DNA of 62,786 bases, counting the filler, from Dugesia japonica (taxonomy: Eukaryota), in the NCBI GenBank assembly GCA_001938525.1. It is 7 parts of 7 records of this genome, joined end to end, with 100 filler letters (N's around TTAATTAATTAA, not from the genome) between each part and the next. Parts side by side here need not be neighbours in the genome. Positions count along the whole stretch, not along the records: positions 25,947 to 35,722 come from MQRL01585464.1; 6 more parts are not named here. The stretch is one strand, 5' to 3'. The notes below the pieces were generated by a model. That model did no database searches. It had not been told where the DNA came from and was given only the letters and a program-made list of their open reading frames with translations. Made by a program: the position numbers and the translations under genes. Below are positions 30,360-32,140 of this stretch, one piece after another. Every line of letters begins with the position of its first letter. Within the stretch, counting starts at the first letter, position 1.

Positions 30360-32140
30360 AATTATTATAAATTTTGCCAAAAATGGTATGCATCCTATAA
30401 TTAATGTTATTGAGATTCCAAAGATGGTATACTATCTGTAAGTCGATAGCACTTGAGTAATTACAACTCTAATAAGTGTATATAACAAATACACTCCTAT
30501 AAATCCGGCCGTCGCTTGACCAAAAACTATGAAGTGCCCCGTATATTCTTCATGGTATTTAGAGTAGCCTTTTTATAATGATCAGGACTCAATGAGTATT
30601 CATAATTTGCGTTTCCTGAACCACTTGGTAATACTTTGTCTACAAATTCTGTTATAACTCTTTTTCTCCTTGATGGAAATAATATATTTCGTCTGGCATC
30701 TTCGATATCTTCATTTGAGTACATCCCTGATGATGCTAGTTTATTTAACGACGTAAAGTTTAACAAATATTCCAATTTTGTCATTTCGAGTTTCTCAGGT
30801 TCTTTAACTTGTTTTCTATCCGGTAATGATATCCATGTATCCAGAGTTAATCTGTACAATGGCGCTATTCGTCGATTACATTCCAATTTCTTTGGTTTCA
30901 CATCTTTATCCAATAACACTCTTGTTATAGATTCCATAAATCTAAGTGTACCATCTACATTGACTGGTAATTCATTTGGACATTCATCATATTTCATAAT
31001 TTTACCGATATTTCTTTACATTTATAACTGTATAACGCTTCTCCCAAAACTCTGGCAAATATTCCATTTTCTGNNNNNNNNNNNNNNNNNNNNNNNNNNN
31101 NNNNNNNNNNNNNNNNNNNNNNNNNNNNNNNNNNNNNNNNNNNNNNNNNNNNNNNNNNCACGATATAAATTCACAATTGTTTCAGTATGCAAATGGAAAA
31201 GAAAATATATTTTATTATTAAAATATTGAGTTAATTTTATTTAAGAGATGTGCACTTTATCCTTGGCATCTTCAATCTTTACCTTTGATACATATACACT
31301 TTTATAATTTGTCTCGTATACTGTTTTGCCACATTTTATAATCGGTTCCTTCCGTATGAACCTCATACTCTCATCATTAACTGATGTCACTAATACAATT
31401 GGTGTACTAATTCTTTCAATCGGTTATGATTTTCTTTCATTAGGCTTGTCTTTAGACACAATAGTAGTATCGGGTTTAGTTTTAAACTGTTCGCCTGTGA
31501 TTTCCGTAAAACCAGCCTGTTTCAACTGAATTAAATTACATTGTGTTACTTTAACTTTATAAACCAACATTGATTCTCCTGTATGACAACTGGTATTATA
31601 TATTTCACAAAATGGATGCGTTTGCATTTTTCCAGTTACATCATCAAACGTACCTTCAAATTCTCGTAACTCTGTTGAATACTCTTCAACTATCATTGCT
31701 TTATCAACAATACTATTTCCAATTTTATATGGTTCTTCTGTACAATCATCATTCTGTTCAAATTTTCCTTTTACTGTAAACAATTCTCTAATAATAAAAT
31801 TCCTTTTCAAAACTAATTTAATTTCTGCATTCACTTTAATCTTTTTTGTTTGAAATGCAGCTTCACAATTTTCTGGAAAAATATCTACAGGCCTTGGAAT
31901 TGATTTAAAATCTATTAATGACGAGTGAATCCATTTTCCACAATAAAATATAAAGGTAGTCCTTTTGACTATACATTCCCGGACTGTTGTCCGACGAAAT
32001 CCTGATTCTTGATACACATAATGCGGTACATTGTTTTAGGTTTTCAATTTCAACGGATGTGCTCCTGGACATTTTGCCACATCATTTAATGAATATATTT
32101 TTCGTTTGATCGTTGTACATTTGTAAAACTTGAGTAGGGT
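30360..32140 (-). pseudogene. env: Envelope glycoprotein of chuvirus (Jingchuvirales)-type, putative class III fusogen
   Basis: Collinear chuvirus-G-like motifs: FYKC..YSLNDVAKC, ECIVKRTTFIFYCG..HSS, CGKTVYETNY, YFNNKIYF, VLGEALYSYKC, C.NELPV, ASSGMYSNEDIE..RRNILFP, then TM FGQATAGFIGVYLLYTLIRVVI and FGISITLIIG. Confidence 0.8.

Follow-up and report, generated by a model that had tools for sequence, protein, structure and literature searches.

The locus described here raises the question of how a broken, chuvirus-like glycoprotein gene came to lie in a planarian genome, and whether it was captured recently from a virus or belongs to a retrotransposon lineage with an envelope gene of its own. 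The window, by which we mean the whole stretch of DNA that was analysed, comprises 62,786 nucleotides of Dugesia japonica (assembly GCA_001938525.1; seven parts joined end to end, filler included) and is AT-rich eukaryotic DNA with numerous N runs. We consider it highly probable that the gene is the broken env of a decayed Ty3/gypsy gag-env-pol element, whose intact ancestor likely coded for one long polyprotein with the membrane topology proposed below.

The minus strand from 32140 to 30360 codes in pieces for a chuvirus-like class III fusion glycoprotein (G). Translation of this strand begins with YKC and DVAKC (32140-32066) and continues, in order, with ECIV..YCG, KCGK, GEA..YKC, CPNELPV, LEC and GMYSNEDIEDARRNILFP; GEA..YKC lies in a second frame, directly past an N run at 31074-31158. 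After GMYSNEDIEDARRNILFP, two hydrophobic segments occur at about 30533-30447 and about 30416-30360, followed by KKQRNKRQKRKK (30302-30267), all on the minus strand. The motifs listed in the initial annotation are all present there, in the order that it gave. In a Pfam search, three pieces of G matched PF24664, the Monjiviricetes fusion glycoprotein, with E-values of 9.5e-17, 2.6e-20 and 3.1e-10, covering profile positions 25-212, 390-539 and 534-601 of 653 collinearly. In the single-frame X read-through of G, 12 of the 13 cysteines fall on columns that are 86-100% cysteine among aligned relatives, and the 13th is inside an out-of-frame patch. Because the PF24664 pieces are collinear and 12 of 13 cysteines sit on conserved columns, the homology is not a chance match, and the profile search that had been proposed as a check on a chuvirus-type glycoprotein supports that identification (best E 2.6e-20).

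The predicted fold agrees. An AlphaFold2 model of the X read-through, made with an alignment of 36 relatives, had a mean pLDDT of 82.3 and a pTM of 0.65. Searched with Foldseek against the PDB, all of the matches listed for this model were herpesvirus gB, the strongest with E 1.8e-10 and a TM of about 0.4. Against BFVD, the best matches were glycoproteins of chu-like viruses and xinmoviruses, with E-values as low as 2e-30 and TM values reaching 0.72. The structural match to class III fusogens on which the initial annotation had staked its reading is thus found in the model, as herpesvirus gB. Since the model leans on the alignment, it speaks for membership in the family and not for folding of the window copy. 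A sequence search of the PDB with the read-through gave 0 matches, and a search with a G profile gave 5 weak ones, two of them pseudorabies gB (E 0.63 and 0.92). The window G therefore has PF24664, the cysteine pattern and the predicted fold in common with the glycoproteins of Jingchuvirales and mononegaviruses and with herpesvirus gB, but is 15-21% identical to the stand-alone G proteins and about 10% to gB; it also sits in a retroelement polyprotein whose lineage has an internal signal, whereas the signal of stand-alone G and gB is N-terminal.

We mapped the breaks in G by short-window tblastn with natural relatives. There are four stops in the frame that matches the relatives, and frame changes near 31000, near 30540 and across the N run at 31074-31158, which is 85 bases long as assembled. 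The ectodomain (30540..32140; class III, gB-type and chuvirus-like by PF24664, AlphaFold2, Foldseek and the frame map) is interrupted by three of the stops, by frame changes and by the N run.

G lies within a decayed Ty3/gypsy GAG-ENV-POL element at 25947..35722, delimited by the N-run map, self-blastn and collinear tblastn of full-length relatives. All parts are on the minus strand, in the order gag, X, env, protease, reverse transcriptase (RT), RNase H and integrase, for a length of about 2,900 codons. The element is a single contig, and no LTR repeat pair was found around it by self-blastn, both of its ends abutting scaffold joints. The gag is in pieces at 33316..34584 (PF03732, E 8.7e-6) with two zinc knuckles that are both below the cut-off (zf-CCHC_5, E 0.0018; zf-CCHC, E 0.0038). 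Between gag and env is an ORF, X (32379..33419), that has no family in Pfam and is common to two relatives, P0052 and P0151; it is 32% identical to P0052 over 104 aa (E 5e-10). Its Atlas lead to Rad60-SLD/ubiquitin clusters is 0.82, the lead threshold being 0.9, and from its sequence ORF X is possibly ubiquitin/SUMO-like.

Downstream of env, an aspartic protease at 29586..29879 matches PF00077 just over the cut-off (E 4.4e-4) and has a non-canonical active-site motif. The env tail and the protease are in one stop-free frame (30431-29007), and relatives are single chains, which bears out the earlier view that G was part of one polyprotein with Pol. The RT is a remnant detected by tblastn at 28655..29028; about 130 codons of its core are gone, P0053 residues 1444 to 1575 being bridged within 5 bases near 28780, and neither YxDD nor PFG occurs in any frame. 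RNase H at 28200..28652 is of the gypsy type (PF17917, E 1.3e-40), and the integrase at 27113..28168 has an H2C2 finger (PF17921, E 2.6e-16), its core partly beneath an N run; the integrase is 44-62% identical to those of relatives by tblastn, and the window Pol is 50-66% identical to that of relatives in which the RVT_1 and rve domains are complete. A gag followed by protease, RT, RNase H and integrase, with gypsy-type Pol domains, is what characterizes Ty3/gypsy elements (Metaviridae), and an env between gag and pol with a gB-like fold and conserved cysteines is what characterizes the GAG-ENV-POL errantiviruses. The window copy does not have the uninterrupted ORFs, with RT and integrase complete, that are expected of an intact errantivirus, and we class it as decayed because of its stops, its frameshifts and the loss of the RT core.

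To place G among its relatives, we used its second half as a phmmer query against 1.84 billion proteins (E up to 0.001). There were 101 matches, the best being long polyproteins with 37-43% identity; named chuvirus and related G proteins were also among them. All 15 relatives that we scanned have PF24664, in 10 of the 15 the chain continues past G into protease and/or RT, and four extend through integrase, so that gag/X-env-protease-RT-RNase H-integrase occurs as a single-chain product in natural relatives, although most G relatives are assembly products. The window G is 31-35% identical to polyprotein-borne G but 15-21% to stand-alone G proteins of 670 aa. In a quick, midpoint-rooted tree of 38 rows, made without bootstrap, carrying a long-branch warning and grouped by motif, it groups with the 12 rows of polyprotein-borne G and is separated from the 25 stand-alone rows, among which are named chuvirus and related proteins (SH-aLRT 100); matches of less than 450 aa, matches without the mature-start motif and P0073 were left out of this tree. 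The grouping favours an old lineage of retroelement env over a recent insertion from a chuvirus. Of 244 candidates of near length from a word-index search with the first half of G, one was a match, and there was none among longer proteins, and a single-protein scan of metagenome contigs for related loci confirmed 0 of 203 stretches.

Several of the relatives P0148, P0052, P0048 and P0047 have two to seven aspartic-protease-like domains per chain, and some among these four have Bcl-2, ankyrin or C2H2 domains. P0053 (HBK71150.1) is a full gag-env-pol polyprotein that was deposited as a Flavobacteriaceae MAG protein; the bacterial label is probably eukaryotic contamination of the bin.

Elements of this kind are known in planarians. 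Arkhipova and Yushenova (2019; PMC6431247) described the giant planarian gypsy element Burro/GYPSM1, in which env is in frame in the interval between gag and pol, as in the window, and has matches to mononegavirus fusion glycoproteins. Burro also has a ubiquitin/SUMO-like domain (PF11976) upstream of env, between gag and env, where the window has ORF X as a weak lead. It is much longer, with 4,873-5,140 codons as against about 2,900 for the window element, and of its BCL2, BIR, MATH and ankyrin domains none had a match in the window pieces scanned; Bcl-2 (P0050) and ankyrin (P0148, 4844 aa) do occur in relatives of the window element, as in Burro.

Chary and Hayashi (eLife 2026; PMC13524379) reported GAG-ENV-POL gypsy elements of Nematoda, Bryozoa and Platyhelminthes in which env is of the gB type, among them six errantiviruses of Schmidtea mediterranea, as well as env-pol matches in two other planarian genomes and 114 arthropod gypsy elements with a chuvirus-like glycoprotein. 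Two of the Schmidtea elements, Smed_errantivirus_1 and _2, have the same gene order as the window element and a gB-type env with cysteine set C1a. By our count by eye, without gaps, the window env is identical at about 141 of 251 positions (~56%) to the Smed_errantivirus_2 env segment, and all 8 cysteines of that segment, in the Platyhelminthes C1a row, are common to both; such similarity by itself suggests a planarian host. The coding spans are similar, about 8.6 kb in the window and about 8.8 kb in Smed_errantivirus_1 and _2, if the published coordinates include the 3-kb extensions given in the methods of that study. These two Schmidtea elements are intact and present in many copies (45 for _1 and 215 for _2), whereas the window copy is decayed. 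In the pair rows presented there, the six Schmidtea errantiviruses have mutual identities of 31-64%; with ~56% identity, the window element is a family separate from Smed_errantivirus_2, to which Smed_errantivirus_1 is slightly nearer (64%). Seven nematode env rows of that study have no obvious motif in common with the window env by eye, and median identity among nematode C1a/d env is given as 19.9%. Its main text mentions neither a polyprotein nor a fibronectin domain. The same paper cites elements from Sacco et al. 2022 that, like the window element, have the order gag-env-pol and an RNA-virus-type glycoprotein.

The initial annotation had proposed that the locus would extend glycoprotein capture to a new host group and transposable element superfamily. 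This claim fails because the planarian GAG-ENV-POL layout was already published in 2019 (PMC6431247) and 2026 (PMC13524379) and because the env is about 56% identical to that of Smed_errantivirus_2. The window env is one more decayed family within a published class, and what it adds is confirmation of a gB-type env inside a gag-pol polyprotein for further flatworm-like lineages. It also sharpens the question of how one chain gets its envelope part into the ER and yet leaves Gag and Pol in the cytosol.

The ectodomain of the window copy has an anchor behind it and no signal in front of it. From the upstream N run to the start of G, including the linker at 32141..32239 where relatives have their internal signal sequence, there is no signal-like hydrophobic stretch in any of three frames (best 11-residue hydropathy 0.71). 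All 13 polyprotein relatives, meaning those with G beginning more than 100 residues into the chain, have a hydrophobic stretch directly ahead of the mature-start motif, with an 11-residue mean of 2.15-3.42. The missing signal peptide noted in the initial annotation is thus a real feature of this copy. Its placement of the break at ~32140 was right as to the loss of the signal, but the damage probably reaches slightly further into G because the first cysteine is 7 residues ahead of the YSL motif in the window, as opposed to 8-9 in measurable relatives.

Our account of the topology of G is based on hydropathy. The predicted membrane anchor is at 30447..30533 (19-residue hydropathy 1.89); the corresponding values in 9 relatives are 1.79-2.41, with K or R next in each, a further relative lacking the search motif. 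In the second hydrophobic segment (30360..30416), hydropathy is higher in the window copy (2.57) than in the relatives (1.5-2.1). There are, however, only 10 uncharged residues, including Pro, between basic residues in all 9 relatives printed, which is too short for a bilayer, so this segment is likely membrane-associated and is probably not a membrane crossing. Both of the hydrophobic segments seen in the initial annotation are therefore present, but the second would probably not cross. Parity leads to the same view, since a cytosolic Pol requires one crossing and two full crossings would put Pol in the lumen; we rejected two full crossings ahead of Pol on parity and on the shortness of the second segment. 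The initial annotation also gave a stop-transfer-like role, returning Pol to the cytosol, to the basic run KKQRNKRQKRKK (30267..30302). Charge counts do not bear this out: the 40-residue stretch with KKQRNKRQKRKK has 12 K/R and 6 D/E in the window and 4-9 K/R and 3-11 D/E in relatives, and we rejected it as a conserved stop-transfer signal, the basic run being particular to the window copy.

In public sequencing runs, related copies are numerous and their transcription is low. A run index gave 9 partial holders among 24 rows, all of one organism (organism A), and we aligned four runs at 85% likeness. DNA contigs of organism A were present in each of the 30 bins, for the most part with identities of 85-99%, and with contig depths of 500-750 in some beside 6-22 in others. 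This unevenness suggests a multicopy family, with the caution given by the tool that depth is not copy number. One RNA run (X11) had 1436 reads of 13.6 million, covering all 30 bins on both strands, of which 5 were at least 99% alike to the window; another (X14) had 59 reads in 15 bins. At some of the break positions in G, related sequences differ from the window, which fits decay of the window copy. For the frameshift ahead of the anchor the runs disagree: the share of related sequences that depart from the window is 30 of 43 depth for run X1, 5 of 8 reads for X11 and 20 of 706 depth for run X5. None of the alignment rows listed had extra sequence at the signal region.

These data bear on three other explanations of the locus. 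One is that a retrotransposon recently acquired a chuvirus G, independently of the known env-bearing gypsy elements, giving a non-retroviral endogenous viral element like Anakin, the BEL/Pao case of mosquitoes reported by Dezordi et al. (2020, 2023; PMC7642597, PMC10084718), whose own screen gave no clear gypsy capture. Anakin is indeed an LTR retrotransposon with a chuvirus-like G, PF24664 and the best BFVD matches do point to chu-like virus glycoproteins, and chuvirus G is among the phmmer matches. The window G is nevertheless closer to polyprotein-borne G (31-35%) than to the stand-alone proteins (15-21%), from which the tree parts it with SH-aLRT 100, and it is about 56% identical to a published planarian element (PMC13524379); no viral L or N gene was found among the window ORFs scanned. 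Anakin also belongs to the Pao superfamily, unlike the window element, which has a gypsy-type RNase H and an H2C2 integrase in its Pol and, in the pieces scanned, matches no Pfam family specific to BEL/Pao. We regard such a capture as very improbable: judged by its sequence, the gene is the env of a retroelement lineage, grouping with polyprotein-borne G, and not a recent chuvirus insertion.

The other two explanations we think each slightly less probable still. If env were a host-domesticated gene, or a decoy against entry of related elements, transcription of both strands of the family could be a sign of use, and glycoprotein domestication of this kind has been proposed in mosquitoes (PMC7642597). 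Against this stand the four stops, the frameshifts and the absent signal, the small number of X11 RNA reads at least 99% alike to the window (5 of 1436), and the antisense reads, which are better suited to a small-RNA source than to a protein. Alternatively, the frame change ahead of the anchor could be a programmed frameshift that yields the ectodomain in soluble form together with a smaller amount of anchored env-Pol, as might be thought from run X5, where most contig depth is equal in length to the window at this site. We doubt this strongly, since all 9 relatives printed pass the site in one frame, most X1 depth and 5 of 8 X11 RNA reads are unlike the window there, and no slippery heptamer is evident by eye.

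Under the preferred reading, that of a decayed gag-env-pol element, the intact ancestor would have made gag, X, env and Pol as one long polyprotein with its Gag part cytosolic. The internal signal would direct the herpes-gB-like fusion protein into the ER, where signal peptidase would free the env N terminus, and the single membrane anchor would bring what follows back to the cytosolic side; the second hydrophobic segment, being short, would lie on the inner leaflet or dip into it. The enzymes behind the anchor would likely be released by the protease of the element itself. By analogy with class III fusogens and errantiviruses, env would form trimers on budding particles and might serve to carry these particles from cell to cell, and so into the germline or stem cells. 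The window copy cannot perform this cycle, as it has no signal and no RT core and is broken by four stops and by frameshifts.

The polyprotein may have carried a second surface protein. Behind the integrase and in frame with it is a tail (26414..27082, minus strand), recognized by hydropathy and by the layout of relatives, that starts with a second signal-like stretch (27082-27038, 11-residue hydropathy 2.63) followed by about 200 residues; no terminal membrane anchor is visible in the window copy of this tail. All four full-length relatives (P0048, P0053, P0148 and P0151) have a post-integrase signal-like stretch, 200-330 residues and a membrane anchor, and each has an LxPxTx(Y/H)-like motif in the tail, which we take to be a marker of FN3 domains. 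The Atlas lead for the P0053 tail is to fn3 clusters (0.89-0.91, of low recognition value), the relatives' tails have no fn3 match in Pfam and no significant pairwise similarity (best E 0.017), and a single-sequence fold of the window tail was uninformative (pLDDT 36.5). Tentatively, and with considerable doubt, we suggest that the polyprotein of this lineage codes for a second surface protein with an internal signal, an FN3-like ectodomain and an anchor, as a possible attachment partner of the gB-like fusogen; the same tentative reading implies an envelope with two glycoproteins, from one chain with four membrane crossings, Gag and Pol both remaining cytosolic. Full-text literature searches and the main text of the eLife paper (PMC13524379) gave no description of such a post-integrase module. 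If the FN3-like tail protein is real and undescribed, it would point to a two-component entry machinery in a retrotransposon, which could be studied in a tractable host.

Elsewhere in the window there are six identical artefact joints (8387-8486, 16894-16993, 25847-25946, 35723-35822, 44525-44624 and 53339-53438), each made of 44 N, a 12-base linker with stops in all frames and 44 N. They mark the places where contigs were joined, and features on opposite sides of one are not certain to be neighbours. A search for tRNA genes found none. Upstream of the element, an M13 peptidase (neprilysin-type) is represented by pieces the size of exons at 36954-39397 on the minus strand, perhaps to 42779; no further M13 exons were found in a scan that covered 54 of 62 short segments of that strand. 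Remnants of hAT and mariner/Tc1-type transposases were found with Pfam at 40495-41100 (plus strand), 1-189 (minus) and 45466-46044 (plus), and further transposase remnants of hAT or mariner/Tc1 type were recognized by eye at 10909-11421 and 37935-38379, both on the minus strand. Two more small gag-like remnants with zinc knuckles, at 50190-52031 and 15774-16710, are related to each other. At 2839-8061 on the minus strand is a gene for a CBP/p300-like histone acetyltransferase with HAT, ZZ, TAZ and PHD domains; it has long exons and is divergent, its best database identities being only 25-43% and scattered over taxa.
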